A stretch of DNA of 63,627 nt, filler included, from Hausera hauseri (Eukaryota), in the NCBI GenBank assembly GCA_046269625.1. It is 12 parts of 12 records of this genome, joined end to end, with 100 filler letters (N's around TTAATTAATTAA, not from the genome) between each part and the next. Parts side by side here need not be neighbours in the genome. Positions count along the whole stretch, not along the records: positions 41,135 to 45,876 come from JBJURY010453357.1; 11 more parts are not named here. One strand, 5' to 3'. The notes under the pieces were generated by a model. The model searched no databases. It was not told the DNA's origin and was given only the letters and a program-made list of their open reading frames with translations. How positions within the stretch are numbered: the stretch's first letter is position 1; every line of letters starts with the position of its first letter. Of the stretch, positions 31,727 to 56,330 are shown in pieces. Position numbers and translations under genes: made by a program.

Positions 31727-33462
31727 AAGTTTAAGCTAGGACAGAAATATTCTCTAATGGATTTAGAAGTATGCGACGATGCCAGACCGCACAAGTTAGA
31801 AACGAGAGAAAAGTTATTTTCTATATCAACAACAAGAATTGGTATCATTGGATGGAATGGAATGTATGCTGAGACGATCTCGTAGCATTTTTCACTGGAT
31901 TAATGCACGGACATTCTTCAATAATCCAATGAATTTGGAACGCCAACATTGTAAGCAGGCCAGGGAAACCGGAAGATTAAAATGGGAGAGTATGAAACTA
32001 GAGATGCAGCCGGGAAAGATAATTAGAGCATATAAGGTAGTGGTTGGAAGACTAGACATGCATAACTGACATTGTAACGGGGCGGAATACGACACCGGAA
32101 AAGGATTAGAAGCAAACGTAGTGGTTGTAGATTTCTATGAATCAGAGATGTGAATACAGAAAGTAATGTTCCATAGTGTCACCAAACTATATACTTAGAA
32201 TCAAAAATGCCATCTACAAGACGGAACATGTGCTTTTAGAAGCTCTGTTATAATATGGGAACCTCCTTCTGGAAGAAGCTGTAATTTTATTAAAATTAAA
32301 GAATTAAAATTTAATGAAACTACCGGAAAACGATATGTAGATAAATCTGATACCAATTCAAGGACACGCGAAGACGTATCAGAACATCCTACACCTACTA
32401 TATTAATCTCTGACCAGCATGGACTAAAATTTATTAAGAAATGATCTCTCGTTGCGAAGTAGTGATGTTCGCCACTAATTATGAAGCATTTTTCGTCGCA
32501 GAATCGAAAATAAATGCGAAAAGTTACAAATTAGAAACGCAGAACATTCGTATTAAGGATTACCTGAAAAACCTAGACAATTACTTTCATTACAAAGGAC
32601 AAGTTGGGATAACCGAATTATATCATAAAATGATAATGAATGATTGTAAATTGGATATGGAAATTATGAGGAAAAAACTGGCTCTTAGCTATGCTACCCT
32701 GAGTTAGCCTTCCCAATAATTCCGATGAGAAGGAATCTTCGGTCTAGTTACCGGTGAAGTCCTATTGACTTATGAATGTGAAAAACGGGACGTACCGATC
32801 AACGTCAAAGAAAAACGATGTATGCAAAAACTTCCCGCCATTTATCGGAACAACCCACGGCTAGCTATGCCACTTACTAGAGTATTGTTAGACAACGCGA
32901 CTCAGCCTACGGTCCTTAAAGATTGTAAAGCGAGCTTAGGAGAACCAATGTTCAGGCACAGTGAAACGGAGTGGGTGAGTTTGCTAACAGAGGTATCACT
33001 ACCGCTCCAAATAAATTAACAGGAACAAATCTCGCAAAGGGAATTACAGACTACAAATTTCAAGACACCTTATCGAAAGGTATATATAGGCCTAAGGAAA
33101 TTGAAGCTTTCAGATAATTCCTCGCTTTTCCGCGACAACGGACACACGAGTTAAATCGAGCCATGGCATCCGTAGTAGATGATACTCGATATCAAGCTAA
33201 ACGGGAATCATTGCTTGGTGTAAACCATTACCAGCGAGTAACTACAGAAATGCTCTACAAAATTTGGGGTAGATTTTTAATTTTTGGACAAGCCGCATCC
33301 GGATTCTTAGCAATATATTCCTTAATACAAATGATTAAGGCCGTCATCCAAGCGGTAATAAATGGGTATGAAATATTTACATTGACCGGATTTTCATGTA
33401 AAATTTTGACTGCGATAACACCATTAGAAAAGTTTCTTAAGGCCTACGAAGAGAGTAGATAA
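31727..33462 (+). pseudogene. env: Near full-length chuvirus-like fusion glycoprotein, decayed
   Basis: Cys pattern EC.LRRSR..FH, RQHCKQA..TG, HCNGAEYD, C...DGTC....IIW....SC, GEV...YEC, C...LP..Y.....A.P.TRVL, then KIWGRFLIFGQAASGFLAIY...I...INGY.I....GFS TM region. Confidence 0.8.
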
Positions 33463-34119
33463 AAATCGGACGCAAACGTCATGTCGGTTATTATAATCGT
33501 AAACGAAAAGGAAAACCAATGTTCTTGTACAAGCGAAAAATGACAAAACCTACTACGCGAAGAAATAATGCAGGCGATGACGAGCCTAAGGGAAAAGTAC
33601 TTCCAAGAACAGATAGACATAAGATGTATTCCATCATTAAAGCACTATTACCTATGCTACCCCCGACTCTCCAGTCTATGAAGACTGTGACAAGTGATCA
33701 ATGAGCTCATATCAGACAGAAATCTATAAAAGGATGATTAGTTTAGAAGACCCTTACGAAGGAACGAAACGTTATGGAGTCCTACGGAAAATGAGTTATC
33801 GACAGCCCGTGGATGACCCAAGAATATTGTATTTCCCCAGAGAACCTCGGAATATAGAGACTAGATCGCCTGTCTGGGAAAATCCAAGGCTAAAAACTTT
33901 CCAGAATAAAGAACCACACACTAACAATCAAGAGCCATTAATTAGTACTCATGAAGCGGAAGAAGTGAACATCGAAAACAATGAATTGTATCCAAACGGA
34001 GAATTAAGACAATTATCGGAAAATATAGTATCTTCCCGGGAAATCTGAATAAATGGACATAAAATATCGGCGAAAAAACGCCTAAAAGCTGCATCAAACT
34101 GTTTTGGGACAGTAATAGA

Positions 34120-36638
34120 AGGAAAACCCTTCGCCAAAATCCTTATTGAAGACTGGGAAGTTTATGCATTAATCGATATAGGTTACGAAATCTCTTACAT
34201 TAAAATTGATTTAATACCTCAAACGCTGAGAGGACAGTTATACCCACCATCCGCAAGAGATCCCGGAAGCACAGGACCTTTCGGTCAAATGTCAAAGCCG
34301 ATGTTCAAACGGAACCCGGAAGTTCAAATAGTTGGACAGTTTTTCCATCACGAATTTGCAATTATGGAACAATTAACCGACGACGTAGTTTTAGGATGTG
34401 ATCTACTGAAAAGACTACCAAATATAGCGATCGACTTGCATACTGGAAGGCTTATAGAGATTAGGCCGAATAAAGGCGTAAAAAATGAAAAAAACAGGAA
34501 AATTGGAGGTGTGGATTCCAGTAGATGAAAATATTCCACCGAGAACCGAAATGATAATTTATGCGCAGATTCAACAAGATGACGATCAGCTGGTATATTT
34601 TGAACCAAAAAAAACATCAAATCCGAATATAATACTCAGTAACATACTGACGAGAGTACATTCGGGTCGTAAATAATGCACTAGTAAGGATAGGAAATAA
34701 TGCACCAACTCCAGTTAAACTTCACGCTTACACCACTTTAGGAAATACGTATAGTGTCGTCTATAACTATCGAAGAAAAACCATACAAATATGCGGAATT
34801 TCCACCTCATGTTGAAACTAAGTTTTCACCTGAATCTTATTGTCGATTCTGTGAACTATTATATCGTTACAAATCAATCATCGCTAAAGACGACAAAGAT
34901 ATCGGTAGAGCAAAAGCATTTAAATTGAGAATCCCTCTTAAGAAGCCTGTTTCTAATGAAGAAATAGATCTTGAAGATCAAAAGATGCCGAAATGTATCC
35001 TCCGCCGCATTCATTAAGGCCCGAAATAACAAGGGGTTAAACGGATGCTTAAAGCTGATATAGTCAGGCCAAGCTATAGATCTTGGTACTCACCAATTCT
35101 GCATCGACTACATAGCATTGAATAATCTTGTGATGAAGGATTCTCTTCCATTGCCGTCAGTTAAAGAAACCCTAGATAGACTATCAGGAGCAACATGGTT
35201 TACCACTCTGGATTTACAATCCGGATATTGGCAAGTGGAAATAGAGGACGAAGATCCATATAAAACAGCGTTTAAAACTCACGATGGTGTCTATAAATTC
35301 AACGTCATGCCATTCGGTATTACTACCGGACCAGCAATTTTTACAAAAATGATGAACAAAATGTTAATGGGACTAGATCATGCTTTTGCGTACTTAGATG
35401 ATGTAATGATAGCGTCGAGGACAGAAGAGGAACACTTGAAGGATACTGAGCACACGCTGATGCGACTAGAACAGGCCGCATTGAAATTAAATCCGAAATG
35501 TAAATGGGCTCAAAAAGCAGTATCCTACCTTGACCATATAGTTGGAGAAGGAGGATCAAAACCGGATAAATCTTTATTGAACAAGATATCAAACTGCATT
35601 GAGCCACAAAATCAAAAAGAATTAAGACACTGGCTAGGTTTATGTGGATATTATGCTACCTGTGTGCCAGACAACTCAAAGATAAACGCACCATTATATC
35701 TTCTACTCAAAAAAGGGATTAAATGGAAATGGACAGACGTCGAACAGAAGGCTTTCGACGAAATGAAGATATTAACAAGTGAACCAGTTCGACGATATCC
35801 GGACTTTAACTTACCCTTTATAATCAAGATTGATGCTAGTAAAGAAGGTATTGGGTATGAATTAGCTCAAAAAAGAGAAGATGAAAAATTGGAACATCCA
35901 ATCGCTTATGGAGAACGTTCCTTGAAGGCCGAGAAAAATTATTCTGTTACTGAATTAGAAACTCTAGCCGTAAAAGAAGCGCTCCGACACTTTAACGTTT
36001 ATGTGTACGGGCAGAAAATCATAATTGTTACTGATCATAGAGCTGTCACGACCTTAAAAGGTCGAGCAAACAACCCGGCATGCAGACTAAACAGATGGAT
36101 CGAAGAAATTTCTAGACATAATATCGAATTCCAATATAAGCCGGGAAATAAACACGTAGATGCTGACGCACTATCCAGACTAAAAACTAAGATGATTTCA
36201 ATTACTGTTATGAAGAAAATTCAACTCAAAGAAATAATAGACCGCCAACGTGCTCTAACGTTGGATAAAGCAATTAAAATTTAAACAGAACAATAGAAGA
36301 ATAAAATTATTCACCGGATCATAGAATTTGCCAAAAAGGACACCATGCCAAAGGGACGGCAGCTAAACAAACATTTACACAGGCACGGGCATAAATACTG
36401 TGTCTTGAATGACAAAAGTAGTGAGAATATTCTATATTATAAGCGAAAGGGAAGGAAATTGATAGTTATTCCGAAACACTTACGAATTGAAGTTTTGATG
36501 TAGGAACATAATTAATATTTGGCAGGACACATGTCCTGGAAGAAAACATAAGAAAGAATATTGAATAAATATTTTTGGCCCACCATCTATATTGATGTAA
36601 AGAATTGGGTGAATGCTTGTGAAGTATGCGCAACTAAA
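34120..36638 (+). mobile_element. pol: Gypsy pol (PR-RT-RNaseH-IN zinc finger) directly downstream of env
   Basis: PR ALIDIGY (degenerate DTG); IPPRT region; RT LDLQSGYWQ, KTAF, MPFG, YLDD; RNaseH IDAS, ELETLAV, TDH, DADALSR; IN AGH...YFWP...C..C. Confidence 0.93.
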
Positions 36639-37676: not shown

Positions 37677-38658
37677 TGTTTCACCTCTGAAAATAAACAC
37701 ACGATTGTCCCACAGGCCCTGCAAACACCGTTACAAGTCCTGGATTGAGCACCAAGCTCCACTCATGATCCCAAAGTCCTGGCTTGAGCCCCAGGCAAAA
37801 AGTCCTCAAAATGAGGCAAACTAGACGAAATAAATTTAAATTATAATGACCAGTTTGTCGTTTATGTTATCAAAGTTTAACAAATTTTTCCTCGTATGTG
37901 AAATGGGGAAAAGCAGCTTTATTTTCCTGCTTGTTGATCATGTTATGTTAAAGTATAATATGAAAATTGTAATTCTCTCGCTACCATGCCGGCGCGGCAC
38001 ATTTCTGGCGAGCCATAGTAGCAAGTGGGCTGAGCCGCCGTCTTAAAAGATGCGGTCTCCACATTGCCAAACCTGATCCTCCGGTTCAACATGCGGAGTT
38101 CGAGGTGGGAGGCTGAAGTTTATTTCACCGTTTGTTGTAATTTTTTACAACATTGCATATCTATTATAGTAGGGTGAAATCATCTCCAAACCGTATGGGT
38201 GTATGGGCCTAAAAAAATGGAAATGCAATGATTTTCTTTTTAGTCTTGAGGTACATTAGGATATAGCTTTAGCATTAATGTAAAATCTTTGAATTTTTAA
38301 TCAGTTCTTTAAATACATCACCCCGAATATAATGGGAGGGGTTTTATTAATAAATCACCCCAAAGATAATGGTAGGGGTTTATTAAAATTTTTACAAATT
38401 ACTAAAATTCAGTTTTCATAAAATCATTTAATTTGTTGAAGACTGAATTTCAGTAATTATATATAGTATTAAATAATTATAGTATTTTACTAAATAATTA
38501 TGAATTAATTATTTTAGGAAATAATGTCTTCAAATAATGATAAACCTGAGACTGCTAAGTCAAACTTTAAAATCCCCAGAAAACAACGTGATTATAATCA
38601 ATACCAAAAACGATGGACAAACGAAGATCCACAATTAATTAAACCGAAAATTTTACAT

Positions 38659-38746
38659 AATAAGAAAGTTGATGCAATAGACAATAAGAAAGTTGATGCA
38701 ATAAACAATAAGAAAGTTGATGCAATAGACAATAAGAAAGTTGATA
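38659..38746 (+). repeat. 24-bp tandem repeat, about 3.5 copies, encoding NKKVDAID in ORF 38524-38790
   Basis: AATAAGAAAGTTGATGCAATAGAC units. Confidence 0.9.
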
Positions 38747-39419: not shown

Positions 39420-40950
39420 ACAATTCTTTTTGGTGATCATAGCAATTTCCCTGCGAACATTGATTTACGATAAGGTTTTAAAATTTGAGAAATAAACTTT
39501 TGGCTTATTCTGTGTAAATTCGTATCAACATTCGTTCAAAATCTCAAAATTTTAGATTTGGTAAATCATGGCTGACTCATGGTTGAAAAGGTTACCCCCT
39601 ACAGACGGTGTTTTTCGTGATGATAATTTTGGTAGAATCATTATAGACGGTTCTAAAAAAATTTGCGGTGTCTGTACATTTGATCGGTAATAATCAAAAC
39701 AATCACCACAACACGTATGTAAATTTTCGACTGTTATTCTGTGATTTGATTGTTTCCAGAAATCAGGATTATAGACCGGAATTACTATACGGCGATTTTG
39801 ATCATTTCAAGTGCGAAATATTTTTGGAATTGATTTGATCTTGTTCTTCAATAAATTAAGCATAAGCAATTGTTCTGATTAGGGTAAATCAGGAACAATT
39901 TTTAATTTATTGTAATCCAACAACAGTTCCTGTAAAACCATTTGTAATACGTTTAAAGACTTCATCTCTTCAGTTTGATTCTTTTGTAAGTTGAGTGTCA
40001 TTAGTTTTGATAGGTTTGAAAATACATAGGGAGTTAATTTGGTTTCATTATGAGATATATTCAAATAAACCAGCTTTGTTAAACTGCCAAATTGTCTAAC
40101 ACTGCCAACTTGGTTAAGTGGCATAAGTTTGATATTCTTGGAGAAATGTGTGATAAACATAACTTTGGAATCCTTATATAATTAAAGTTTTGGATAAAAG
40201 GATCAATAGCTCTGATTGCAGCAGAGATCCTCCGAGGACAGAAAACGGGCCCGGGAAACCGGTGCAACAGTGGCCAATCTATTGCGCCCAATTGTGTCCG
40301 ACAGAAAAATGCCAGGGTGCCGGAACGCACGAAAGGCACCACAATGTAGACAGAGGTATATGGTCGTTTCAAGTGGTATTTTTTCGTGGTCGTAGTAATT
40401 GCATTATATGATTTGACGTTGGATTGAATGTGACATGTTAGATTATGGTCGTCATTAGAAATAATTAAGAAATAAAAACACTTGACTGAAAAGGTTCATC
40501 GACATTTGTAGATAACATTCATATCAATAACATTCAGTTGTATTCACTGAATAAGTTTGATTTGTTTTGACATAATATAGTAGGAAATCCAAAGACCCTA
40601 TTAGGGCGGGGCTAGTGTGTTAGGATGTCGTATAGGAACGTCCAATAAGCGTTACAATTGGTCTAGAAACAAGAAGATCTCTTAAGGAAATGGTTTAGTC
40701 AATTTGAAAAAGATGTTTTTGTTGTGTGAAAAATAAATTGGTCATTATCTTGTTTGTTTCTTGTCTTTGTCCTTAATGTAGTTGCATCAAATGGATATTA
40801 AACAATTCAACCTGGAAATCTGAACTACCAAAATCGACCATGAAAAATATAACCGAAATGTATGGAGGATCCGGTGGAAGCTTGCTGGTTCGTTAGTCAA
40901 ATCTAAGTTGGTACAGTCTGCTATGACGATAACTTGATAGCTGTGAATAT
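39420..40950 (-). pseudogene. Decayed Toll-like/extracellular LRR protein
   Basis: LRRNT-like IADCTNLDLT near 40920; LTKLVYLNISHN, FSNLSKLMTLNLQKN, LQELLLDYNKLK; many stops; an unrelated GC-richer stretch at about 40190-40400. Confidence 0.55.
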
Positions 40951-41134: not shown

Positions 41135-41692
41135 TTTAGTAACGCTATGAAACATCGCTTTCTGTATACGCATTTCGGTTTCGTAAAAATCCACTACTAC
41201 GATGTTTGATTCTAATCATTTTCCGGTATCGTATTCCGCACCGTAACAATGTCCATTGTGCATATCTAGTCTTCCTGCTGCCACTTTATACACTCTGATT
41301 ATTTTTCCCTGCTACATTTTTATTTTCATATCGTCCCATTTTATTCTTCCCGCTTTTCTAGCTTGCTTACAATGCTGTCTCTCCAAATTCATCGGGATTA
41401 ATGGGGTTGTTGGCTTAATTACTGACGAGTGCCCATGCACCAGTACATAATGGAAAATGCTGCGAGATCGCCGCAACATACATTCTACTCCATGCAAGGT
41501 AACTAGTTCGCGTTGATGACATAATATATAACTTTTCTCTTTTGTTTCTAATCTGTGGGGCCTCGCATTTTCGCACATTTTCAAGTCCATTAACAAATAT
41601 TTTTGGCCAAGTCTAAATTTGTCACAATCATATACCGTGACTGCGCCAATTTGCCTTATTAACATCATTATGGTAAAAAATTGATTAGCCAA
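41135..41692 (-). pseudogene. env: N-terminus of chuvirus-like glycoprotein
   Basis: Hydrophobic FFTIMMLIRQIGA then VTVYDC; ECMLRRSRSIFH, RQHCKQA, HCYGAEYDTGK; closely similar to 31727-32200. Confidence 0.8.
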
Positions 41693-41778
41693 TTCGATTC
41701 ATTTCCTCTGCGATTTCCAGTTACATTTCGTAGCAGATCTCCGAATCTATTGTTATCAAAGAAGAATCCACTCAAATG

Positions 41779-44700
41779 TTATTCCTGTTTTTCGAATAAC
41801 TTAGACCTGTTCACTTCTCGGGGTAGCTTCCTGGCAGCCTTCCTTGTCAAGCTAGTAGCCTTGTTAAACTCATTTTCTCGATTCGGATTGCTTTTGATGG
41901 CCATATATAGCAACACTTTTCTCAGTTCCTCTATGGTATTTTCTACCAAAATTTTCTCAATTATAATTTCATCGCTTAAAGTACTTTTGGTTAATTTACA
42001 CTGGAGGTTCTTTATGGCCTTGGCGGCGTTCGCTATGGCCTTCTCCTTCTCGTTTAATATATCACCATCGAGGTTAGAGTGGTTTACTATTCGTACCAAA
42101 TTTTTCATAAGTTCGTTCAGCTCCTCATTATCCGCATTAAAGGTTGGTATGGACATCTGCCTTAATTCTCTGATTAAGTCTCCATTATAGTCGATCTCCT
42201 TCCGCATTTTCCGTGGTCTGCCGACAGGACACTTTTGTTTTGTTATAGGAAGTACATTGATATCGATCGGTACTAAATTTTTATCATATTGCTCATTATC
42301 TTCATCTTTTGCAGGTACTCGAAATATACTGCTGCATCTCCGACTCCTATTATTCTTCCTACCTGTTGTTCGGCTTTAGCCTTCCTTATGGCCTCTTCTT
42401 TTGTTTCATTGATAGTGGTGGTTACCACCAACCGGTTTAATTCTCCTGGATAATTTTAACATCATCAATAATTCTGTCTCGTCTAGTATTCTTCCTCGGA
42501 AATAAAGTCTATAGCTCAGCTCATGGACGTATCCGTTATTCTTTATCCACAGTAATACATATTTTACAAGGGAGCGCGTAGTGAACTCTTGTTCTTTTCG
42601 TCCATCCAGTCCGATGCTAATTTTACTAGAATCGTCTCTTCTGCTTTTGCTTTTAGGATTTTGGCATATTCTTTGTGTAAACGCTTAGGTACTGTACTGA
42701 AGATCGTACCTTCACTAGCTAATTTAGTTAGAGTGGGGACTAACCGTCTTAACTGAATTTCAGTGAGATTTACCTCGATCAGCTGAGTTAAATTTTTCTC
42801 GGTTTGTGCTGGGTCCAGAATCATCCCTATATCGAACCTTTGGTCTGGAGAATATATCTCCATTTCGCCTAAGTATATTGGGGTTTTCGGATTCTCCGCA
42901 ATCATTGCATCTAAATAGGCCTCCCAATCTGGTTCATTTTTATTATCTGGCAGTTGATAGCTCCTCGACGGTATATCGGCTGGCCTGTCTACACCCGCGA
43001 GCTATGTAATTGCTCTGAGTTCTTGTAGTTTCTGTTGCATTTGGACCATTTTCGTCGTTCGGAAACATCGCCCATTAGCGGACGTTTGGTGGAGCAGTGT
43101 TAACATTGAACATAAATTAGCCCATTTTCTTGAAAATTTTTTAGTTCAGACGTGACATCTCTTTGCCATCTTTGCACGAATTGTGCCTTGTCCGCTTTTT
43201 CAGCTTCTGTAAGGGCGTATTTGTTTTTATACACTTCGAGTACTCTAGCTAGTTCGTCTAATCTTATCGCTCTCTGCTTCGTCTTAATGCAAATTTCTTC
43301 GACTTGCTGTATTTGTTGCAACAATTGTCTTAATTTACTGTCACTAATTTCTGCCATTTCCCCCATCAATAGCGCTAATTCGTATATCTCATTAATGCTG
43401 TTTGAATCTGGATCGATTGCATCTAATAATTTTTTACAAATTTGATCTCTTTGGAATTAAGGTTGCGGTCCTTCTTTATTTTAATTAGTTCGGCATAATG
43501 CCTTTGATCCGTTCCGTCCATCCATCCTTGTGGCTGGTGTAAGAATTTCACCGTTTCTTCAACAATCGACCGATTTTCGCGACAAAAGTCCAAGGTTTTA
43601 AGGTCTTGGATCGAGATTTCTTCAATAAGTTTAGCTGTCAACCATCGTATCCTTTCAGACCGACATATCTTAATCGCGGATAGAAATCGCAAGTCGCATT
43701 CCGTTTTCGAATAAAGTTTGTTTCATAGATCATCTTATATATATCATTTAGTATCATCGTTTCTTGTTTCTTTTCCATAAAATTCAATTGACGTAGCGTC
43801 TCGAATTGGGTTTGGATGTCATTTTCTGCTCTCATTGTATCTAGATTTCGGGCGTCTTTCTCTAATTGCTTCTTCACTGTAGGCTCACTCTCGGAAAATT
43901 CTTTTTTTCGATCGCCTACTAATTTACTCAGCCTCGTTATTATTTCGGACCATTCTTTCAACTGATTAGCGATTTCTGGCTTTGCCAGTATTGCTTTGTT
44001 CAAAAATTTGCGAGCGTCTTCTAGCTAGTCATCTAAACCTTTAATAAAATCGATGATCCGGTAGGCATAGTCAAACTCGTCCTTGTATTCATCGGACTCG
44101 AGGATACAAGTCAGAATTATTTTCTGCATTTTATTATTTGCCGGGTGCATGATCCTAGTTCTTATACTATATATCTGCGACCGTTTTTCGACTTCAATTT
44201 TAATACGATTCTCCAGATTTGCATATTGCTTGGAGGCCGTCGAAGCGATCTTTATCATTTCTGTTAAGGGTGAAATATCTATTGGTTCTATGCCCAACAT
44301 CTCTAAGTCGTTTGCATCTCGTTGCTCGACTATGATGAATCTAATTTCGTCCATGACACGCTCCAAATTACGTACTACTTTTTTTAATTTCGGGTTGGCT
44401 TCTAATATAGCTAATAACGACTGAGCCTTGTTGATCCTAGTTTCAATGTCTTGGGTAGTTTTGTCCCACGTCTCCGGAAATTTCGCCTTGCGTTTGATCC
44501 ACCGTTCTAATTCACGTTTCTACTGAACAAGTGTTTCTTTAGCCACTTTTTCGGGCTGATCTAGATCTATAGCTTCGCTTAGTTTTCCTTCACTACACAA
44601 CTTCATCTTTTTATATAGTCTGTCTACGAACTGCTGTTCCTTACCAGAAATATCAATTTGTTCGCTTATTGCTTTGAGCTTCTCTAGGTTCTGTCGTAAT

Positions 44701-45482
44701 ACCTCTGGATTGCGACAATTCATCCTCATTCTTTTTAACTCCTCTGCATTTTTCCACAAACGCCTTATCTTCCACTTTTTAGGATAAAGTTTCTCCTCTT
44801 GTTCTGTTTCCTCTTCGCTAGTGAGTAAAGGACATACGTCATTTATTTCATTTATAGATTTTGTCGGCTCATTCATTTCGCTTGGCGTAACTAAATTTAT
44901 TTCTGGAACGTTCGAGGCACACTCCGTGTCGCTTTTTAACGCGATTTCGGTTTCTCTCTCTATCTTAGATTTCTGTTTGATCATTGGGGATCTCGAACGG
45001 TCTTTACGTTTCCGTCTCAGTAATAGGCTACGGCCTCTATTTTTGGTAATTTTAAGTATAAATGGTTCGATATATTCTTCTTTTTCGTCCACCACTGCCT
45101 CCTTAGTTACCGTTTTTATAATATATTTAGGTTCTACATCCGAATCGGCTTCGCCTGTGGTCTCAGGCTTTTCTATTTCATCTAACTTTTTGTTTATTGT
45201 AAGAACGTTCTTTTCCCCTACCATATCACTGAGCCTTGGTGGGGCAATGGAACGTTCATACTCCGTTTCTGGTTCACGCAGGCCATGGTAAACTTCCATT
45301 AGTCGTAATTTGTGCTCATATTCGTTTCTAGCCACTAAAACTTTGGGGTCCTTGGTTTCAGGCTGGGCTTTTAAAAAACGCCGTAAATCCTGTATCTCGA
45401 TAATCATTCCTGTTTCTCTACGAACACCGTAAATTGCTTCTAAATTTTCATTTTTAATTACGTTAGTGTTACTAGGTTCCAC
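41779..45482 (-). pseudogene. About 1200-codon charged/helical region between gag zinc knuckle and env, decayed
   Basis: ORFs 44520-45482, 44025-44366 and 43638-44003 share one frame (single TAGs between them); four more co-oriented pieces follow after frameshifts. Confidence 0.7.
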
Positions 45483-45876
45483 AAACGAGACACTTCGCGG
45501 ATTCGGACAGGACCTTGCTATGTGTCCTTCTTGTCCACATGTGAAACAGACTAAATTGCCATTTCTTCCAACTCTTTGCCGGCCATCTTCGTTTAATGGC
45601 GATTTAGATCTACTCGGATTTCTATTGTAGTTTGGTTGCGACGGAGCCTGTCTAGGCGATTATCATAATTCCGGTTGTCATTCTGTCGACTAAAGTTTTT
45701 AGAGCCATCTAAGCGTTTATCTGTTTGATAATTTGATTTATTAGAAAAGCTATTTCGACTATTATCAAAATTCTGATTACTGTATCGATCGTTTCTTCGA
45801 TCATAATTACCGTTCTTGTTCCGATCCCGGTTAAACCGTCTATCATTTCTATTATTTCGGTTTCTATCGCTCCGAT
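45483..45876 (-). CDS. gag: Gag C-terminus with R/N-rich tract and CCHC zinc knuckle (45507-45548)
   Basis: CFTCGQEGHIARSC, in frame with ORF 44520-45482. Confidence 0.85.
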
Positions 45877-46399
45877 NNNNNNNNNNNNNNNNNNNNNNNN
45901 NNNNNNNNNNNNNNNNNNNNTTAATTAATTAANNNNNNNNNNNNNNNNNNNNNNNNNNNNNNNNNNNNNNNNNNNNTATATATTGATGATAGACTGGTTC
46001 GAATTTAATCAATTGACTCAATGAATAGGTTTTGACATCCTTATTATCTCTCAGCGTAGAGATAAACAATTCATTCTTCCTCGGTCATTTCTTTCAAGTT
46101 ATTGGGGATTTCACCAGTCTGATTGTACTCTACATACGTACTCTCGTGCAATTTATTGCTGATTTGCCTATAAATAGATTTTGATTTGGGGGTAAACACT
46201 ATAAAGCATTTCTGTGAGAACTCGTCGATGCTACGACGCTCGGTTCCTATCTTCGTTATCGTTGTGGTACTTACCGCTCTAAATAATAAGCAATAATGGT
46301 TAATCATATAGCAAAGTATTCTTTTGAATTAAAACCAATTCTTTGTTTGATGATGGAATAAGTCGATCTGTATTTATCAGGTTATTTCACCATAGGTTT

Positions 46400-47710
46400 T
46401 GCCTTGGGGCACCATTACTCTTAATTCTCTTTGTTTCATTTTATTGCGCTTAGTCTGGTAATTTTAGGTAACTAAGCAAAAGGTCGCAATTATCATTATG
46501 CGAGCGAACGTTGATAGTCCAATAATTGACAAAATTGGCAAAGTCGTCAATCCAGTTGGATGTTGTGTAGTGATTGGAGTTGTGATCTCGTCGTCTGTGT
46601 TTTCGTATAAATGTGGTTCTTCATCGACTTCGTCTAAGGTACGTAAAGTGAACGTTTGGTTTTGTTTATTTTGTGCATATACTTGTATTATATAATCCGA
46701 CTGTGGTTTTAATAAGTTACATTCTGTCTGATAACTTTTTAAAAGTAATGTCACAATTTAGTTATACATTTTTGAGCAGCTTATATGAATGTCGTAATTT
46801 ACTTTTTCTTACACGGAAAGCACAATCTTATGTCGCTGGGTCAAATATTTAATAGGTATACTTTCTAGTTCTCTTTTAGGCATTCTACTCGAAGTGGTCA
46901 TTTCAGTGGTAGTACTTACTTGAGTATCTGGTCTTCTTGTTGTCGTTTCCAATGAAATTTTCTGTCTCAGTTTTTGGGCGATATCCTTGTAGGTAAATTC
47001 TTGATTTCTTCGGTGGGGTTGCGTATAAATCGAATAGTATTCTGTATTCGTTTACCAATAGAATTTTACGGCAAACGTTCGTTTTACCTCATGCGATATA
47101 ACAGTAATTCGCTAACAGAGCTATCTTTTCTATCGAAAGGAATCAAATAGAGATTTGTCTATCGCCGGGCAATCTTGTTTTTGTTTTAATCTGGATACAA
47201 TTATTCCTTATGTCCCTAGAAATTCCGATTGTTATCTTCCAAAATTCGTCTATGAGGATCAATACTTCGCATAATCCCTAAGTTTTGCTTGATTAGTTTC
47301 GTTCCGCTTGGGCATGTCTATATTGAGTTGTGGTAGTGTGTAGGCTGGGGCTCCATGAAAATGATAATAAAACATTTGACGTTTACATCCTCACGATCGT
47401 TCAAATTCTAGTTCGCAGCATTTTTGTTGACTTTCATAGAAAAGTCACAGGTTTTTATTATTTTACTGGCTTTATCTATAAATCGTATCTGAAATTTTAC
47501 ATGACTTCTGACGGATCTATCTTCTATGAACTAGGCGCATGGTGTTTTCCAGTTCATGTCGTAGACTCGTAATGACTTTAAATTCTGCATATCTTCCCAT
47601 CTTTCTATATGCTGTAGTCTCTTACAGGAAGGATTGTCTCCTTTACTTTTTGGAAAATAAGAAGCTATTAATGATAGTGCCAAATTATCTGTACGTATGA
47701 TATTTGTCTG
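46400..47710 (-). pseudogene. Post-integrase type I membrane protein (Cys-containing ectodomain, Thr-rich, FN3-like, TM), decayed
   Basis: TECNLLKPQSDYIIQVYAQN, TTPITTQHPTG stalk, TM ILSIIGLSTFARIMIIATFCLV; possible splice acceptor TTTCCAG near 47708. Confidence 0.5.
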
Positions 47711-47799
47711 GAAATTATGGAAGAAGTTTTCCTTTCTTTTTGTTCTTATTTACGTCCTTCGTTCATAATTTTTAACGTTTATTTATTTTTATTTCCGTT

Positions 47800-50414
47800 T
47801 TGACGACTCTGAATTGATACGACTTCTTCTTTTCCATTCTTGTTGATATAAACTATAGTCGGAGTGGTTCTGATAATTTTGTACGGTCCTCTACCAGTAC
47901 GAGTCAATTTTAATGATGTGCCTTTCTTGGCTACTGGATAGTGCACATATATCCAATTTCTTTGTTTTAAATCGCGTGGTTTTGCTTTCTTATTATACTG
48001 CTTTTTAAACTGTTCTTGATATTCTTTGGATAATTCTTTGGCAACTTCCCAACATTTTTGTAATCGTGTCTATAATACTTCTGCGAAATTTTGTTATAAA
48101 TCTTCGGGATTTATGGTATATGGTATCATTCTTAAATCTGTTGGTAATATAGATTCTCGTCCATACAGCATGAAGAAAGGTGTGAATCCAGTTGCAGGAT
48201 GTGGTGTTGTATTAATAGCAAATTAATTCATTCTAAAAATTCGTCCCAATCTTTTTTATCTTTTGCGACTACTGTTGAAAGAATACGTATAACGACAGCA
48301 TTCATGCGCTCGACCAGTCTGTTGCATTGAGCGTGTTATACCGCAGTAGTTAATCGTTTGATCGCGAATATTTTGGTAATTTTCTCATAATAATTCGCTT
48401 GTAAAATTTCTTCCTCGATCAGTTCGGATCTGATCCTGGGTCCATATCGGCAAATAATTCTTCTTACTACACATTCAGCTAGACTTTTAGCTTTTTGGTC
48501 GATTAGTGCTACTAGCTCCACAAAATGAGTCAGTCGATCAATACAGGTTAGAATATATTTGTTATTTTTGTAAGTTGTATGTAGTGGTCCTACAATATCC
48601 ACTGACATAGCCTGCACGGATCTATCTGGTACGTTAATTGGCTTTAGTTCCTCTGTGTAGTTTTTCGTCTTTTCCTGCTTGGTTGCGCATAGTTCACAAG
48701 GGCTTACCCGTTTTTTACGTCAATGTAAATATTAGGCCAAAAGTATTTATTCAGTATTCCCTCTAGCGTCTTTTTCCAGGACACGTGTCCAGCTAGGTAT
48801 GAATCGTGTTCTGTCGTTAGAACTTCCTTTCGTAGTCCTTTTGGAATGACTATCAGTTTCCGTCCTCTTCATTCGTAATATAAAATATTTTCGTGACCCT
48901 TATTATTCAAAACTCAATATATATGTCAATGTCCCTCTAAATGTTTCTTTAGCTGTCGTCCTTTTGATATTATATCTTTTGCAACAAATTCTAAAATCTG
49001 CTGAATGACTTTATCCTTTTTCTGTTCCATTGAACTTTTGATTGCTTTATCTATGGTAAGGCGCGTTGAAGGTTTACTAACGATTAGAGCTGAGTCTTCT
49101 TTATCACGGTAATTACACTCGTCTTAGCTTTTAATCTCGATATTTCGTCAGCATCTACCTGCTTATTTCCGGACTTATACTGAAATTCGATGTTACACCT
49201 CCAGATTTCTTCGATCTATTTATTGAGTCCACATGTTGGATTGTTTGCCTGTCCTTTCAAGGTCGTGACGGCTTTATGATCGGTAACAATTATGATTTTC
49301 TATCCGTACGCATATACATTGAAGTGTCGTAGTACTTCTTTTACAGCTTATGTCTCTAATTCTGTAACGGAATAATTCTTCTCGGCTTTCTTTAACAATT
49401 GTCTTCCATATGCAATTGGATGTTCCAGTTCTTCATCTTTTCGTTTCTGAGCTAGTTCATATCTAATACCTTATTTACTGATATCTGTCTTAATTATGAA
49501 TGGCAAACTAAAATCAGGATACCTTAAAACTGGTTCGCTGGTTCATCGAAGACCTTCTGTTCGACATCCGTCCATTTCCATTTAATGCCTTTCTTAAGTA
49601 AGCGATTTAATAGTGCATTTATTTTTGAGTTATTCGCCACGTAACTGGCAGTATCCGCATAATCCTAGCCAGCATCGTAACTCTCTGATTTTGTGGCTCC
49701 ATGCATTCTGATATTCTGCAGTGATTTATTTGGTTTCGATCCTTCTTCTCCAACTATGTCCAAGGTAAGATACTGCATTTTGAGCCCATTTACATTTCTT
49801 TGAGTGTAGATTTAATCCAGCTTATTCTAATCGCATCAGCGTATCTTCGATATCCATTATTTATTCTTGTTTTTGAGGCTATCATTACATCATCTAAGTA
49901 GATGAATGCATGATATAATCCCATTAGCATTTTATTCATCATTCTTGTACAAATGACCGGTCCAGTTGTAATGCCAAACGGCCTGACACTGAATTCGTAA
50001 ACGCCGTTGTTTTAAATGCCGTTTTATAACGGTCTTCATCTTCAATCTCTACTTGCCAGTATCCAGATTATAAGTCCAGAGTGGTAAACCACTCCTGAGA
50101 GTCTATCCCGAGCTTCTTTAACGGACGGCAGTGAGAAAGTCTAATCATTAAAGTATTCAATGCTCTATAATAAATGCAAAATCGATGTTTCGTAGTACCT
50201 TTCTTTTTACCCATATGTATCGGCGAATACCAAGATCTATAGCTTGATATAATTATATCGGCCTTAAGCATCTGCTCAACTTCTTGTGATTTGAGATCTT
50301 AGTAAATGAGGTGGATGATACCATTTCGGCATCTTCTGATCTTCGAGATCAATGTCTTCATTTATCCCAGGCTTTCTTAAGCGGGATTGTTAACCTCAGA
50401 GCTTTAGCTCTACC
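47800..50414 (-). mobile_element. pol: Decayed Gypsy RT-RNaseH-IN, same family as 34120-36638
   Basis: RSWYSPI, RFCIYYRALN, LDL*SGYWQ, IYLDD, EHPIAYG, AGH..YFWP, VDIVGPL, GPYKI. Confidence 0.92.
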
Positions 50415-50620
50415 AATTTCCATGTATAATTTACAATCGCTTGTTATCATCTTGTGGTATAGTTCGGCTATTTCAACTTGTCCTTTGTAGAAATAATCGT
50501 CTCGATTTTTCAAGTAATCTTCAATTCGGATGTCGTGCGTTTTTAACTTGTAAGTTCGGGCATTTATTTCCGTTTCTGCGATGAAAAATGCTTCATAATT
50601 AGTGGCGAACATCACTACTT
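50415..50620 (-). pseudogene. env: Mid-ectodomain fragment of chuvirus-like env, fused by deletion to the pre-RT region
   Basis: MFATNYEAFF...LYHKMITSDCKL.MEI (matches 32460-32665) continues directly into GRAKA...IPLKK (matches about 34904). Confidence 0.85.
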
Positions 50621-50720: not shown

Positions 50721-53700
50721 TTACCAATATGGGTTTTGAAAATTGTTTGACCTATACCAGTTATAATCTAGATTGATACCACCATTATTCCATTTTCTTC
50801 GCGTTCTATAATTAACGTTTTGACCTTGGTTATTCCCGAAATTTATATATTTCCTTTGGTTGTAATAATTTGTTTTATCCTTTTGATATGGCCTCTTAAA
50901 ATATTGCTGGGATTGATAATTATTAGAAGTTCTTGTATCATTTCTGCGACGATCTTGAAACTTAGTATATTTTTGCGTTTCATTATAGTAACTTTGCTTC
51001 GTATGTGTGTTATTATTTTGGTACGGGTTATATTTCTTCCACCTATTGTCCTGTGCGATGTATTTATTTGCGTCATATGTTCTGTAATAATTATTATAAT
51101 TTCGTTGATATGTGCGCGGCTTTCTATACTTTTGGTTATATTGAGCTTGATTCCCTCTTTGCTGTCGTTGGGTATAATAATTACTATCCTCATATTTTCG
51201 ATTAATATTTTTTCGTTGGTATTTGTTGTAGCTACAGCGATTTTCATACTCCCTATTTTTGTTATACTTTCTCTGATTCTGAGAAGTGAGTGAATTTATA
51301 TGGCTAGAGTAATTTTGTTTCTTCCGTTTGCGGAGGTTGTATCTTGTTTGTTGATTGTGGTAATTTTCATCATTTTCATTATCCCTGCTTTGTTCGTCAA
51401 TTTCCTCATTTTCTGTCTGAATTTGATCCGTTTGGTCATCATTTTCGTCATTATGGTTAAAATTTTTTCTTTGTGTTTTCTTAAAAACATGTCTCGTGTG
51501 TACATTAAATGGTTTTCTATTCTCATTTCGTGTGTCTTGCAACAGTACGTTGTGATTCCTACATATCTTTATTATTTTATAAGGGCCTGTAAACTTCGTA
51601 TCTAGTGTATTTTTTCTTCGGAAATTTTTTAAATAAACCATATCTCCTATCTCAAATACTCGTTCTTTATACGGCTTTTGGTTGTTGAATTGCTTCGTTT
51701 GAAATTTATTCTGTGCCTCTCCTGCTACTATTTTTATTTTATCAAAATCCTTTTTGTGTTTGCGGAAATACTCTTGAAATTCCTCTGGTTTCATATTATG
51801 GATGTCCTGAATAATTTTTTCCCATGTTTCGTTGTTGTCTGGTGAGTAAATAGGATCCGTAGGCATGTTCAGTTCTCTGCCAAAGAACAGTGAATTTGGA
51901 CTACAGGACGTCACACTGTGTTTAGCGGAATTGTAAAAGAATACTACCCAATTGATAGCTTTTTCCCAGAGTACATTGTCATAAGCTAGTGCACGTACAC
52001 AATCTTTAAAACTCTTATGACATCGCTCCAACAAGCTGTTCCCACGGGGATTGTAAATAGATGTATACCTAGCTTGAATACCTAGTTTATCCAATAGACT
52101 TCTATACACCTCTGATTTGAACTGTTTACCGTTATCAGATAAAATTACCCAAGGTAAACCATAATCATAACAATAATTCCATACAATATCTTTTATCTTA
52201 TGAGCTGTTATTTCTCTAACAGGAAAAGCTTGTAAATGTCTCGAAAAATGATCCACGATTGTTACTAGAAATCTATTTCCTGTCGCTGATTTTGGTAATT
52301 CACCCACAATATCTATAGAAATCATACTACCTGGCTCTTTTGCTTTTTCAACTATTGGTGTTTGCGTTTTTGGAATATTACGTGTTTTATATAATGCGCA
52401 TCCCTCGCAACTCTTTATATACTCTTTTATATCTCCGTGCATACCTGGCCATATATACTGTCTTTTAACTATGTCTGATACTTTAGAAATTCCTAGATGT
52501 GTGGAATGGGCTATTTTTAATATTGTATCTATTAATGAATCTGGTACCACAATTAAATTCTTTTTTCTTCCTTTCGCACCATCCCTAAATTTTACTACTT
52601 TGTCTTCGTCTATAAAATATTGTTTGTAAATCTTAGGTATCTCCTTTCCACTCTCTAATGCTGTAATGATTTTAATAATTCTTTGGTCTTCTCTCTGTCG
52701 TTGTTGTATATTTTCTATGGTTATATCCTTTTTTCCGTCGAAAATTTGCGCAACTATGTTATTAATTTGTTTTTCATCTAATATATAACGACTGTAGTAG
52801 TCTGAGGGATTGAATTCGCCCCTGATGTGTTTAAAGCGGAACGAATATTGGCTTAAATCTAAAAGCCACCGAGCAACCGTCGAATGCTCTTTTTGTAAAT
52901 TTAATGGATGCTTCAGACATTTTGCGTCTGATTGAAGTACGAAAGTATTATTGAATAAATACGCATGGAAATGTTTTACTGCCTCATGTATGGCGAGGAG
53001 TTCTAGCTTAAAGCTTGGGTATTTTGATTCTGCTGGCTTTAAAATCCTACTATAATATTTTACAGGAACTTCCTTCCCATTTATTCTTTGTGTTAAAATT
53101 GCTGCGATAGCCTTGGAACTTCCATCCGTGGTTAAATAGAATTTATTTTTTAAATTAATCGCATGAACTGAAGGTTTTTCAATTATTATTCGTTTTAACT
53201 CTAGAAAAGCTGTTTCGCACTCTTCTGTCCATTGAAATTGTTGCCTACCCTTTGTTAATTCAATGAGTGGCGCCACCTTCTCAGCATAATTGTTTATCAG
53301 ACTTCTAAAATAATTAGTCATGCCTAGGAATGACTGAACTTCCTTTTTTGTTTTCGGTGATTGAAAATTCTCCACTTTAATAATATTTTTATATGCAGGA
53401 GAAATTGAGTTCTTACTCACTTCAAAACCTAAGCATTGGATCTTAGTCTGGCCCACTGTTGTTTTTGCTGGATCTATCGTTAAGTTAAATTCAATGAGTC
53501 TTTTAAGTACCATTTCTGTCTTATGTTTAAGCTCTTTTAGTGTATTCGCGGCTATGAAAATATCATCGAGATAATAAAATATGTTGTCTTTTCTAAATTT
53601 TTGCAAAACTTTATCCATGAGTGTTATAAAATATGATGAAGAATTAATCCAGCCGAATGGAACTCGAGTATAAGAAAAACGTCCTCGCTCTGTAATTATC

Positions 53701-55316
53701 GCGCATTTGTCCCTCTCTGATTCAGGTAGGTGTATTTGATAAAATGCCGCCTTGAGGTCAAATTGACAATAAAATTTAAAAGCAGCCAATTCATGTAATA
53801 TATCATGGATATTCGGTACGTGAACTTTGTACAACTTTGAGTAGTGGTTCAATAGGCGAAAATCTGTAGCCATACGAAATTTTGGAGGACCATCCTTATC
53901 TTTTTGTTGCTTCCTAATAAATAAAACTGGAAATGCGTAATGTGACTGGGACGGTTCTAATAATTTTGCATCTATTAATTCAGTTAACTCTGCCTCTGCC
54001 TGTTCCTTTAATTTTTTGGGTACTGGGTAAGCTTTACACTGAAGAGCATGAGAGTGTGTTAATTGTATCCGAGGCTCAACGGCATCGGAAACACCAAGCG
54101 TTCTGTAACATTTTGAGAAGGCTACAGCATTCTCCATGAATATTTTTAAGAAGTCATTCTTATCTTCCTCCTCTAAATGATCCAATTTGAAATCCGTTAC
54201 ACTTAAATCCTGTCTCCTCATTTCTAACACTTCCTCCGTTGGTTGACTCGTAATTGAATTTATATAAGTTACTATTTCATCCGAATCTTCTGCTATTTCA
54301 GTATTTTCACCTAAATTCTCAACCTTCCCCACTCTCATCTGCTTATTTAAATGTATCTTTTGCGAAGTTTTATTAGTTATGAAAATATCTATCTCTCCGT
54401 TATCATTAATTGTTTGTATGCAATTGTCATCATTTAATATTCCTAATGAGTGGTCTATGAGTATTATGTCTGTCTGCGGACGGATTGGTCGGTCTAATAT
54501 TAAATTTACTATTCGGGTTTCCTTCGGTTTTAATACCATTTTATATTTTATTCTAGCAAAATTCTCAGTTATTTTATTGTTCTTATTCTTATTTTCCCTT
54601 TTTTCTACATTATCATCATTTTGTTCTTTATCTCCTCTGTTACTATTTACACTCAGTATATTAATATTCCTAATTTGAATATTATTTGTTAGGGCTATCT
54701 TTTCCCTATTTATCGTTATTTCTCTATTGCACAAACTGATATCTATTTGATTTTTAAACATAAAATCAGCTCCCAAAATAATACCATACCGCTCATGAAT
54801 CTTTGTGTGTGTAACACAAAATACTCCAGAACATCTCTTTTTCCCAATGTTTAATGAAAACTCGACTACTTTAGAAAAATTTATAACTTCTCTTGTGACT
54901 GTCTGTAATTTAATCTGCCTTGATACATATACAATTTTTGTGTGTTGCTTAATAATTTGGAATACATTGTGTTCTAGAATGGACATTTGCGCCCCACTGT
55001 CCAAAAGCGCAATAAATGCTTTATTTTTCACTTTAATTTCAATTGTTGGCAGAAAATCCTTATTTCCCTGATTATCACCTACAGACATAACCTGATGGTT
55101 CAATGCCTGGTGATCCTTCCATTGAAATGAGTAATTATCATGTTGATATTTCTGATTATATGGTAACCTTATATTCCTGTCGTAATTGTTTTGGAAACGA
55201 CCTCTATTCCTTCTGTTTATATTTGTTTGAGGGTTGTAATTAATATATAAATCCCGGGGGACCCGACGGTTATTTTCTTGTCCTACCATCTGGTTCCCCG
55301 ACCATACCCTAAAAAA
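50721..55316 (-). CDS. pol: Intact Gypsy pol (PR-RT-RNaseH-IN) with N/Q/Y/R-rich tail
   Basis: 1522-aa open frame: LLDSGA, YLDD, TDGS, H..H/C..C, IDIVG, SDNG, LER, GPYKI. Confidence 0.96.
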   Translation of the reverse strand, partial: FFRVWSGNQMVGQENNRRVPRDLYINYNPQTNINRRNRGRFQNNYDRNIRLPYNQKYQHDNYSFQWKDHQALNHQVMSVGDNQGNKDFLPTIEIKVKNKAFIALLDSGAQMSILEHNVFQIIKQHTKIVYVSRQIKLQTVTREVINFSKVVEFSLNIGKKRCSGVFCVTHTKIHERYGIILGADFMFKNQIDISLCNREITINREKIALTNNIQIRNINILSVNSNRGDKEQNDDNVEKRENKNKNNKITENFARIKYKMVLKPKETRIVNLILDRPIRPQTDIILIDHSLGILNDDNCIQTINDNGEIDIFITNKTSQKIHLNKQMRVGKVENLGENTEIAEDSDEIVTYINSITSQPTEEVLEMRRQDLSVTDFKLDHLEEEDKNDFLKIFMENAVAFSKCYRTLGVSDAVEPRIQLTHSHALQCKAYPVPKKLKEQAEAELTELIDAKLLEPSQSHYAFPVLFIRKQQKDKDGPPKFRMATDFRLLNHYSKLYKVHVPNIHDILHELAAFKFYCQFDLKAAFYQIHLPESERDKCAIITERGRFSYTRVPFGWINSSSYFITLMDKVLQKFRKDNIFYYLDDIFIAANTLKELKHKTEMVLKRLIEFNLTIDPAKTTVGQTKIQCLGFEVSKNSISPAYKNIIKVENFQSPKTKKEVQSFLGMTNYFRSLINNYAEKVAPLIELTKGRQQFQWTEECETAFLELKRIIIEKPSVHAINLKNKFYLTTDGSSKAIAAILTQRINGKEVPVKYYSRILKPAESKYPSFKLELLAIHEAVKHFHAYLFNNTFVLQSDAKCLKHPLNLQKEHSTVARWLLDLSQYSFRFKHIRGEFNPSDYYSRYILDEKQINNIVAQIFDGKKDITIENIQQRQREDQRIIKIITALESGKEIPKIYKQYFIDEDKVVKFRDGAKGRKKNLIVVPDSLIDTILKIAHSTHLGISKVSDIVKRQYIWPGMHGDIKEYIKSCEGCALYKTRNIPKTQTPIVEKAKEPGSMISIDIVGELPKSATGNRFLVTIVDHFSRHLQAFPVREITAHKIKDIVWNYCYDYGLPWVILSDNGKQFKSEVYRSLLDKLGIQARYTSIYNPRGNSLLERCHKSFKDCVRALAYDNVLWEKAINWVVFFYNSAKHSVTSCSPNSLFFGRELNMPTDPIYSPDNNETWEKIIQDIHNMKPEEFQEYFRKHKKDFDKIKIVAGEAQNKFQTKQFNNQKPYKERVFEIGDMVYLKNFRRKNTLDTKFTGPYKIIKICRNHNVLLQDTRNENRKPFNVHTRHVFKKTQRKNFNHNDENDDQTDQIQTENEEIDEQSRDNENDENYHNQQTRYNLRKRKKQNYSSHINSLTSQNQRKYNKNREYENRCSYNKYQRKNINRKYEDSNYYTQRQQRGNQAQYNQKYRKPRTYQRNYNNYYRTYDANKYIAQDNRWKKYNPYQNNNTHTKQSYYNETQKYTKFQDRRRNDTRTSNNYQSQQYFKRPYQKDKTNYYNQRKYINFGNNQGQNVNYRTRRKWNNGGINLDYNWYRSNNFQNPYW
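55255..55316 (-). promoter_or_regulatory. -1 programmed ribosomal frameshift signal
   Basis: Gag-frame AAT TTT TTA GGG (heptamer 55310-55316), 9-nt spacer, stem CGGGGAACCAGATGGT / ACCGTCGGGTCCCCCG; the -1 frame is open into pol. Confidence 0.85.
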
Positions 55317-56314
55317 TTCTGCTGATTATTTCGAAAAGCTCCTCTAGCTCTAAAATTTCTACCTCGGCCTCTATTACTAGTATATCTTTGGGTTATACTC
55401 CGCGGGCGCTCCCGGTACCAACAATCTTTTGCTGAATGTCCCATTTTATCACAAATTTGACATATTATTGCGTCCTGACTCCTATTATTACTTTGTATCC
55501 TGCTATTGTTTTGACGCTTTTGAGTTTGATTTTTCTTTGATTCATTTTTATTTTTATTTTGATTATTTTCCTGTTGTTCCTGACCCATCTGTGGTAAATA
55601 ATTTATATTTTTGTTTGCCGTATTATAAACCCTTTCTAAATGACATGCCTTCTTTAATGCTGTGTCAAAATCATCATAATCTAATTTTTGGAGTTCTAAT
55701 TGTATGTCTGGTCGTACGATCTGTACCAATTTACCTAGCATAATTGACTGGTATTCGGTTGCATCCATGGGCAATGTACTATCCTTTCCCATCATTGCTC
55801 TGGCTTTTTGCCTAATTAATTGTCCGAGTTCGGTCACGGACATGTCTTGTTTATGCTGCAAATTTTCCCATTCGTCTATGCATTGTGATTTGGTTTTAAC
55901 TACTGGAAATAATGACTTTAATAATTTCACCACTTGATCATAAGTACCTTTTGTAAATAATTCTCTATCATTCATTAGCAATTGTGCTGCCTTATCCTTT
56001 AATTTATTTTTTATGACAAATGTCCTATTTTCTGGTGTCCAATTATATTCATTAGCGACACATTCAAATTTCATTAAGAAATGCTCTATATTTTCCCCTG
56101 GTTTTCCATGAAATGAAGTAACCAAATCAACCGTCTTTGGGTTGGGCGGTGCGGCCGGGCCCCTAGGCTGCGCTAAAGTCGGGCTTGCGCTAGCACCCCT
56201 TTTTTCCAGAACTTGCATCTCTTCGCTATATGCTACACTGTCCGTATCATTTATTCTCTCCTCCACCGGCGCTGGAGACAACTGTCTACGCGTGTTCCGT
56301 CTTTTTGGAGGCAT
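55283..56314 (-). CDS. gag: Intact Gypsy gag
   Basis: ATG at 56314 (MPPKRR); FHGKPGENIEHFL..FE...W capsid motif; CQICDKMGHSAKDC knuckle. Confidence 0.92.
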   Translation of the reverse strand: MPPKRRNTRRQLSPAPVEERINDTDSVAYSEEMQVLEKRGASASPTLAQPRGPAAPPNPKTVDLVTSFHGKPGENIEHFLMKFECVANEYNWTPENRTFVIKNKLKDKAAQLLMNDRELFTKGTYDQVVKLLKSLFPVVKTKSQCIDEWENLQHKQDMSVTELGQLIRQKARAMMGKDSTLPMDATEYQSIMLGKLVQIVRPDIQLELQKLDYDDFDTALKKACHLERVYNTANKNINYLPQMGQEQQENNQNKNKNESKKNQTQKRQNNSRIQSNNRSQDAIICQICDKMGHSAKDCWYRERPRSITQRYTSNRGRGRNFRARGAFRNNQQNFLGYGRGTRW

Positions 56315-56330
56315 CTCAAATAATAAACTA

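Follow-up and report, generated by a model that had tools for sequence, protein, structure and literature searches.

The planarian Burro/GYPSM1 elements encode one very long open reading frame (ORF) of 4,873-5,140 amino acids (aa), in which a Gag protein with CCHC zinc knuckles is followed by Smc-like, MATH, BIR, ankyrin, Ubi/SUMO-like and BCL2-like motifs and then, in frame, by an envelope protein (Env) matching mononegaviral fusion proteins and by a protease (available part of PMC6431247, Arkhipova and Yushenova 2019, citing Grohme 2018 and Jurka 2007). These elements swap accessory modules (Smc-like, midasin-like and MATH) according to the same text, and BURRO1 is active and under PIWI control according to the available part of PMC8532177. 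Errantiviruses of GAG-ENV-POL order with an ENV of the HSV (herpes simplex virus)/gB type were reported from Platyhelminthes, Nematoda and Bryozoa (PMC13524379, Chary and Hayashi 2026); the main text of that paper, as far as available, leaves the Gag-Env interval undescribed and holds 0 occurrences of Burro, ubiquitin, Bcl and ankyrin. Here, we analyzed a stretch of 63,627 nucleotides (nt) of Hausera hauseri DNA (GCA_046269625.1; the window), in which a preliminary description had reported about 3.8 kb of coding sequence fused to a Gag zinc knuckle and leading into env. We reasoned, at a probability of roughly 0.75, that this region is the decayed Gag-knuckle-to-gB-type-env coding sequence of a multi-copy Ty3/gypsy-type element, likely representing the accessory section of a giant polyprotein of the Burro or GAG-ENV-POL kind.

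The window is composed of 4-9 kb contigs chained via 11 linkers of 100 bases each (N50-TTAATTAATTAA-N50), such that adjoining segments are separate contigs without physical linkage. The contig that carries the finding is 4.7 kb in length (41135-45876) and is read on the minus strand. Listed in the direction of reading, its features are the following.

45660..45876, minus strand: R/N/D-rich, low-complexity end of Gag, seen in translation; the capsid part lies off the contig.
45501..45551, minus strand: zinc knuckle of CCHC type, at residues 37-53 of the ORF at 44520-45659 (PF00098, E 2.8e-7).
43638..45500, minus strand: proximal part of the accessory region, read in the frame of Gag, with the first ~230 residues charged and of low complexity, then predicted helices; two stops.
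43100..43456, minus strand: coiled-coil-like piece after a frame switch (generic coiled-coil DegS, E 0.0007-0.0012, below the family cut-off).
42660..42818, minus strand: four-helix unit like that ahead of the ubiquitin-like domain of intact relatives (profile score, hmmsearch and hhalign).
42410..42650, minus strand: probable ubiquitin-like remnant, frame-broken and weak, with a motif at 42507-42448 on the matching profile columns.
42208..42222, minus strand: GRPRK basic motif between the ubiquitin-like unit and Env, as in the relatives P0291 and P0297.
41779..42200, minus strand: distal piece, located where Burro and P0291 have their Bcl-2-like domain, without a detectable Bcl-2 match.
41642..41690, minus strand: hydrophobic signal-like segment before Env, with a switch of frame within it.
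41135..41641, minus strand: N-terminal portion of a fusion glycoprotein of gB type (Monjiviricetes-like; PF24664, E 1.9e-6), with two stops and cut by the contig end.

The frame of the knuckle continues for ~620 K/E-rich codons downstream with two stops, and the ORFs at 44520-45659, 44025-44519 and 43638-44024 lie in a common frame of 673 codons that contains 2 stops. As few as two stops in the best frame were found in 0/2000 composition-matched Markov sequences (mean 38). These data indicated that the coding region after the knuckle is real and that its first three ORFs share a frame, as the preliminary description had proposed. Coding-like pieces are found further on in changing frames (43100-43456, 42564-43001, 42406-42603, and 41779-42375), and the interval from the knuckle to the YDC motif of Env amounts to ~1,290 codons. 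Lys and Glu together account for 21.8% of the residues over four frame pieces of the accessory region, whose base composition matches that of env and pol. An AlphaFold model of 394 proximal residues, predicted from a single sequence, is all-helix, in line with the K/E-rich helical character claimed for the region, but the confidence of the model is low (pLDDT 46). As claimed too, the region ends ahead of a hydrophobic stretch and VTVYDC, the latter at 41641-41624.

Evidence that the region belongs to a family came from other copies. Three related contigs lie within the window, and one public sequencing run, X1, matches the accessory stretch (share 0.22), with 7,817 of its contigs covering 30/30 bins, mostly at 80-95% likeness, and one record connecting the distal piece to the start of env. 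Since run X1 is perhaps related to the source of the window, these contigs document copy diversity rather than a second host. That the region is peculiar to this copy, as a nested insertion or a chimera of the assembly, would be compatible with the finding lying on one short contig, with no contig of run X1 covering the whole stretch among the matches listed, and with no retrieved locus spanning the whole element. However, coverage of all bins by thousands of diverged contigs is what a family sequence gives and a private insertion does not; moreover, the fusion to the knuckle is in frame, and the similarity is collinear with the cassette of the relatives described below. The accessory region is bounded neither by terminal repeats, long terminal repeats included, nor by tandem arrays and contains no internal repeats. 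We therefore consider a private origin scarcely credible. Several length differences from the other copies fall near the frame switches, and hence the breaks probably reflect decay of this copy itself. The copy is dead.

The remainder of the family is represented by two further contigs.

31727..36638, plus strand: sister copy on a separate contig, with the rest of env, a spacer, a protease-like region, reverse transcriptase (RT)-RNase H (RH) and the start of integrase (IN), from PF24664, RVP and RT/RH matches.
45977..50620, minus strand: further relative on a separate contig, with an env piece, a large deletion, RT-RH-IN and then a stretch rich in Thr and a transmembrane-like segment, from translation, Pfam and tblastn.

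The sister contig shows 72% identity to the env start of the finding over 486 nt. It carries PF24664 matches at profile positions 270-437 (E 1.7e-16) and 464-637 (E 1.5e-22), and a decayed protease-like region at ~34124-34420 (RVP, E 0.011) for which tblastn to the proteases (PR) of the relatives agrees. With positions 8-124 added by the finding, the profile positions matched across contigs identify the Env as gB-type (class III). The knuckle and env lie together on one contig, and the overlapping sister has env, protease and RT; the family order is accordingly gag-accessory-env-pro-pol, which rests on two copies rather than one. Nematode NERVs, in the 2022 work of Sacco et al., reportedly have the gag-env-pro-pol order as well. 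The Ty3/gypsy order PR-RT-RH-IN was found on the sister contig and on the relative at 45977-50620, outside the contig of the finding. One correction to the preliminary description concerns Pol: the RT and IN beyond 45977 belong to a different contig across an N-linker, and the finding's own contig thus gives no view of Pol. The description had been right that a protease is missing where one is expected: Pfam searches matched no protease family in any piece of the accessory region, and the position of the protease after Env accounts for this.

Intact relatives were found by searching for long proteins whose RT is similar. PF24664 was present in 6 of the 110 proteins matched, and Env lies ahead of the protease in 6/6. 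P0291, P0294, P0295 and P0296 are unbroken single ORFs of 3,761-4,057 aa, P0297 is partial, and P0325 is a distant nematode protein; P0291 and P0294-P0297 are European Nucleotide Archive records that stand for clusters of 5, 21, 7, 20 and 1 members. The full-length relatives are ordered Gag-CCHC-accessory region-hydrophobic segment-Env-PR-RT-RH-IN, and knuckle, accessory region, hydrophobic segment, [AT]YDC and Pol occupy one ORF in 4/4 of them, which supports the earlier idea of a Gag-X-Env polyprotein in which a signal-like segment lies internally, before Env. Their knuckle-to-YDC interval is 440-874 aa, with a K+E content (20.7-30.1% in the 3 measured) similar to that of the window. A comparable R/N/D-rich linker precedes the knuckle in P0291 and P0294-P0296, and the flanks of the window's knuckle are similar to those of the last knuckle of intact relatives. 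The hydrophobic segment before Env is clear in the relatives, and a transmembrane segment follows Env. P0291 has two units and ankyrin repeats, and its accessory region holds a ubiquitin domain (E 4.4e-5) and a GRP-K motif; a weak Bcl-2 match (E 0.06) was obtained for 1/5 alignment members, probably P0291. When the 518-aa Pol piece of the sister contig was used as query, the 8 best of 230 BLAST hits fell in the clade of P0291 and P0294-P0297. In a Pol tree of 25 rows, for which 24 of the 230 matches were chosen as clade representatives, the sister contig is the sister of that clade (support 90/94) on a long branch.

The relatives show further features outside the accessory region. In P0291, P0294-P0297 and P0007-P0009, integrase is followed by one more membrane protein, consisting of a hydrophobic segment, an ectodomain of a few hundred residues, a Thr-rich stalk and a transmembrane helix, and possibly representing a second surface protein. 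The contig 45977-50620 carries, in the corresponding place after integrase, a stretch rich in Thr together with a transmembrane-like segment (46544-46463, minus strand). Each ORF of P0294-P0297 contains three protease-like D[TS]G motifs, two before RT and one after integrase, and ankyrin repeats are located between Env and protease in P0291 and after integrase in P0290 and P0043.

A unit common to all four full-length relatives consists of four helices and a ubiquitin fold. AlphaFold predicted four helices and, after them, a beta-grasp domain (pLDDT 85.8), the latter matching ubiquitin/SUMO with Z ~10 and a root mean square deviation of 1.5-1.9 A over 73-78 residues; fold searches with the whole unit were dominated by matches to the ubiquitin domain. 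PF11976 (Ubi/SUMO-like) matches 2/5 members of the unit alignment. The terminal diglycine is absent from the ubiquitin-like domains of the relatives, which makes a binding module likelier than a cleavage tag. The four helices may resemble TFIIS N-terminal-type bundles, but no Pfam match of that kind was obtained with E values up to 1.

Only sequences of the intact relatives went into the profile of the unit with which the window was searched. Three methods agreed on 42818-42660 as the best site for this profile. The position-specific score there is 39.8, whereas the highest scores were 24.4-30.2 among 58 control stretches and 28.6-30.3 among 40-60 shuffles; hmmsearch ranked the site at the top of 72 frames (i-E 0.015; 0.19 with helical columns alone), and hhalign gave P 0.016, the best of 19 pieces. 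The motif at 42507-42448, aligned to the ubiquitin-like columns, falls in the frame piece that follows, and its spacing of 152 nt, against 52 profile columns, is as expected; in a position-limited test of this weak remnant 11/281 random stretches were equally good. These results give moderate support to the presence of the unit at 42818-42410, and the accessory section likely held helical and ubiquitin-like modules. The distal match also means that the region is not the single unknown domain of the preliminary description. The ESM Atlas returned leads below 0.9, solely for the four-helix piece, and PDB sequence searches with three pieces of the region reached E 0.041 at best, with unrelated proteins.

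No homologue could be assigned to the proximal ~900 codons in sequence or fold searches. One possibility is that they stem from a host gene fragment, of coiled-coil or helical-repeat type, that was captured separately and joined to the ancestral four-helix/ubiquitin cassette in this lineage; this would be compatible with our interpretation of the distal part. The region is longer than in all four relatives, its proximal part is predicted to be all-helix, and the module swapping described for Burro in the available part of PMC6431247 supplies a precedent. However, a phmmer search with the first 648 residues against 1.84 billion representative proteins yielded 114 matches, all best at the knuckle and none beyond it; the Pfam coiled-coil matches are weak and generic, and the base composition matches that of env and pol. 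We consider such a capture unlikely, albeit the most serious of the alternatives. The preliminary description had raised the possibility of a second captured gene; if this came from a mononegavirus, an N, P or matrix gene would have arrived along with the glycoprotein. The region is directly upstream of a Monjiviricetes-type glycoprotein, and mononegaviral N, P and matrix proteins are often helical and fast-evolving. Against this, no Pfam viral family and no viral protein matched, no viral structure matched the poor, low-confidence proximal model at E <= 0.001, the distal part matches a ubiquitin-linked unit, and relatives with the same Env differ widely in accessory length and content. A mononegaviral origin is thus very improbable.

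Beyond the unit, the GRPRK motif, which we take to be AT-hook-like, is followed by the distal piece, in which profile, PDB sequence and Pfam searches gave no Bcl-2-like match; nothing usable was obtained from the ESM Atlas with 41779-42375. A junction hidden Markov model (HMM) of 36 residues was not significant. VTVYDC opens the match to the Monjiviricetes fusion protein PF24664, and the env start shows 26-30% identity, at E 5e-13 to 1e-15, to the env sequences of 5 relatives. A search with the Env N terminus among proteins of 550-1,750 aa yielded 0/1,531 candidates, and no locus was recovered from viral contigs scanned with env and RT or from metagenomes with the env alignment.

If the decayed region is read as the accessory section of such a polyprotein, a topology can be proposed from general polyprotein principles. 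The chain would be made in the cytosol as far as the hydrophobic segment, which would act as an internal signal sequence; signal peptidase might then cut just ahead of the VYDC motif, the Env ectodomain would enter the lumen of the endoplasmic reticulum, and the Gag-accessory part would remain tethered to the cytosolic face of that membrane. The transmembrane helix of Env would bring the chain back to the cytosol, where the protease would release PR, RT and IN. The accessory section may accordingly have been a long, helical, matrix-like tether between capsid and Env-bearing membrane, equipped with host-interaction modules.

Several observations weigh against the interpretation as a whole. Gag-accessory-env and env-pro-pol are on different contigs, joined only by the 72%-identical overlap. 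The HMM match to the helical unit is modest by either i-E (0.015 and 0.19), the ubiquitin-like and Bcl-2-like profiles did not rise above the null in free scans of the window, and tblastn of the relatives against the accessory region detected no similarity outside the knuckle and env. At ~1,290 codons, the region is longer than its counterpart in each of the 4 relatives. Ahead of Env, the signal-like stretch is both frame-broken and weaker than those of the relatives, with a best 11-residue hydropathy of 1.7 versus 2.5-3.0 in 5 relatives. Trees based on a shorter RT disagree, one giving an open fork with the clade of the relatives and the other a grouping with other elements (support 95). Topology, cleavage and the tether role are proposals only. 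Finally, the 31 best-supported differences in the region are spread 12/9/10 over the codon positions (40 were listed, 5 of them without an assignable frame and 4 outside the region), and this even spread speaks for neutral decay of the copy after insertion, not for selection on the family. Between two window copies of env, 55/101 differences are at third positions.

The apparent conserved accessory core, seemingly the four-helix unit plus the ubiquitin fold, narrows how such elements couple capsid to envelope and interfere with host ubiquitin or apoptosis pathways. A bolder view, tentative and on the doubtful side, is that these elements form an env-before-pol animal lineage with a conserved four-helix plus non-cleavable ubiquitin-like module in a membrane-tethered Gag extension, to which ~900 residues of new helical protein were added here. 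If this were true, it would point, together with the post-integrase membrane protein of the relatives, to a retrovirus design of flavivirus style, multi-pass and contained in one ORF, that has a matrix substitute of its own as well as a second surface protein. Some novelty lies in two features of the relatives, the conserved four-helix unit that precedes the ubiquitin fold and the second membrane protein after integrase, which are unnamed in the available parts of PMC6431247 and PMC13524379 and which their supplements may name. The literature available to us holds no domain-level account of the accessory region beyond PMC6431247; the Grohme 2018 supplements, Sacco 2022 and Repbase may name modules. 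Since the copy is dead and the layout is published, the gain is incremental.

Other contigs of the window carry unrelated features. Leucine-rich repeat (LRR) coding pieces are present at 29724-30548 and 39879-40181, both on the minus strand (Pfam LRR, E 4e-13 and 1e-7). The former, presumably similar to the LRR of flightless-I, is on a contig that also bears retroelement pol and is thus possibly a captured host mRNA piece. An unrelated gypsy element occupies 50721-57512 (minus strand), with a gag of 379 aa and a pol of 1,534 aa, both open; the pol has a long N/Q/Y/R-rich tail and is truncated where the contig ends. Just upstream of this gag/pol lies a mariner transposase ORF of 360 aa, likewise open. 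Two long open frames of 588 and 341 aa at 10799-13515 (minus strand) have no significant Pfam match, and part of the longer one may resemble a DEDD-type exonuclease. A 24-base unit is repeated in three to four tandem copies at 38654-38745, and a remnant of a hAT transposase dimerization domain is located at 57704-58210 (minus strand; E 5e-8).

The family shares with Burro, as described in the available part of PMC6431247, a CCHC Gag, a long accessory region and an in-frame mononegaviral-type Env followed by PR-RT-RH-IN, as well as coiled-coil (Smc-like) content and an accessory Ubi/SUMO-like domain (PF11976) that is clear in the relatives and, in the window, probably survives as a weak remnant. 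Burro has 2-3 knuckles versus one on the contig of the finding, and MATH, BIR, ankyrin and Bcl-2 are all without a match on these contigs; the element is therefore Burro-like but not Burro. This copy is frame-broken, and the single giant ORF is seen in the relatives. Burro exceeds 30 kb and occurs in dugesiid planarians; the contigs here are short, end within coding sequence and were compared with it by published description only. With the GAG-ENV-POL errantiviruses, as far as PMC13524379 describes them, the family has in common the gene order, multiple copies and a gB-type Env that two membrane segments can flank, and, judged by eye, the env start is similar to the Schmidtea rows in supplement 2 of that paper, a tentative pointer to a flatworm host. 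Among the features that mark this class, PR-RT-RH-IN order, gB-type Env, Env between Gag and Pol, and multiple copies were all found; the published elements are intact and this copy is decayed. The nematode example P0325 is distant, ranking 185 of 230 by Pol and giving no match to the contig of the finding. The nearest Pol relatives found are P0291 and P0294-P0297, which have knuckle, unit, hydrophobic segment, Env and Pol in one ORF and differ from the window in accessory length (440-874 aa versus ~1,290 codons) and in Pol, at 38-42% identity. Taken together, the finding is a new, decayed example of an already published layout, with an accessory region longer than that of its relatives, and it extends the Burro design, in which one frame encodes Gag, accessory modules, Env and Pol, to another and more distant family.

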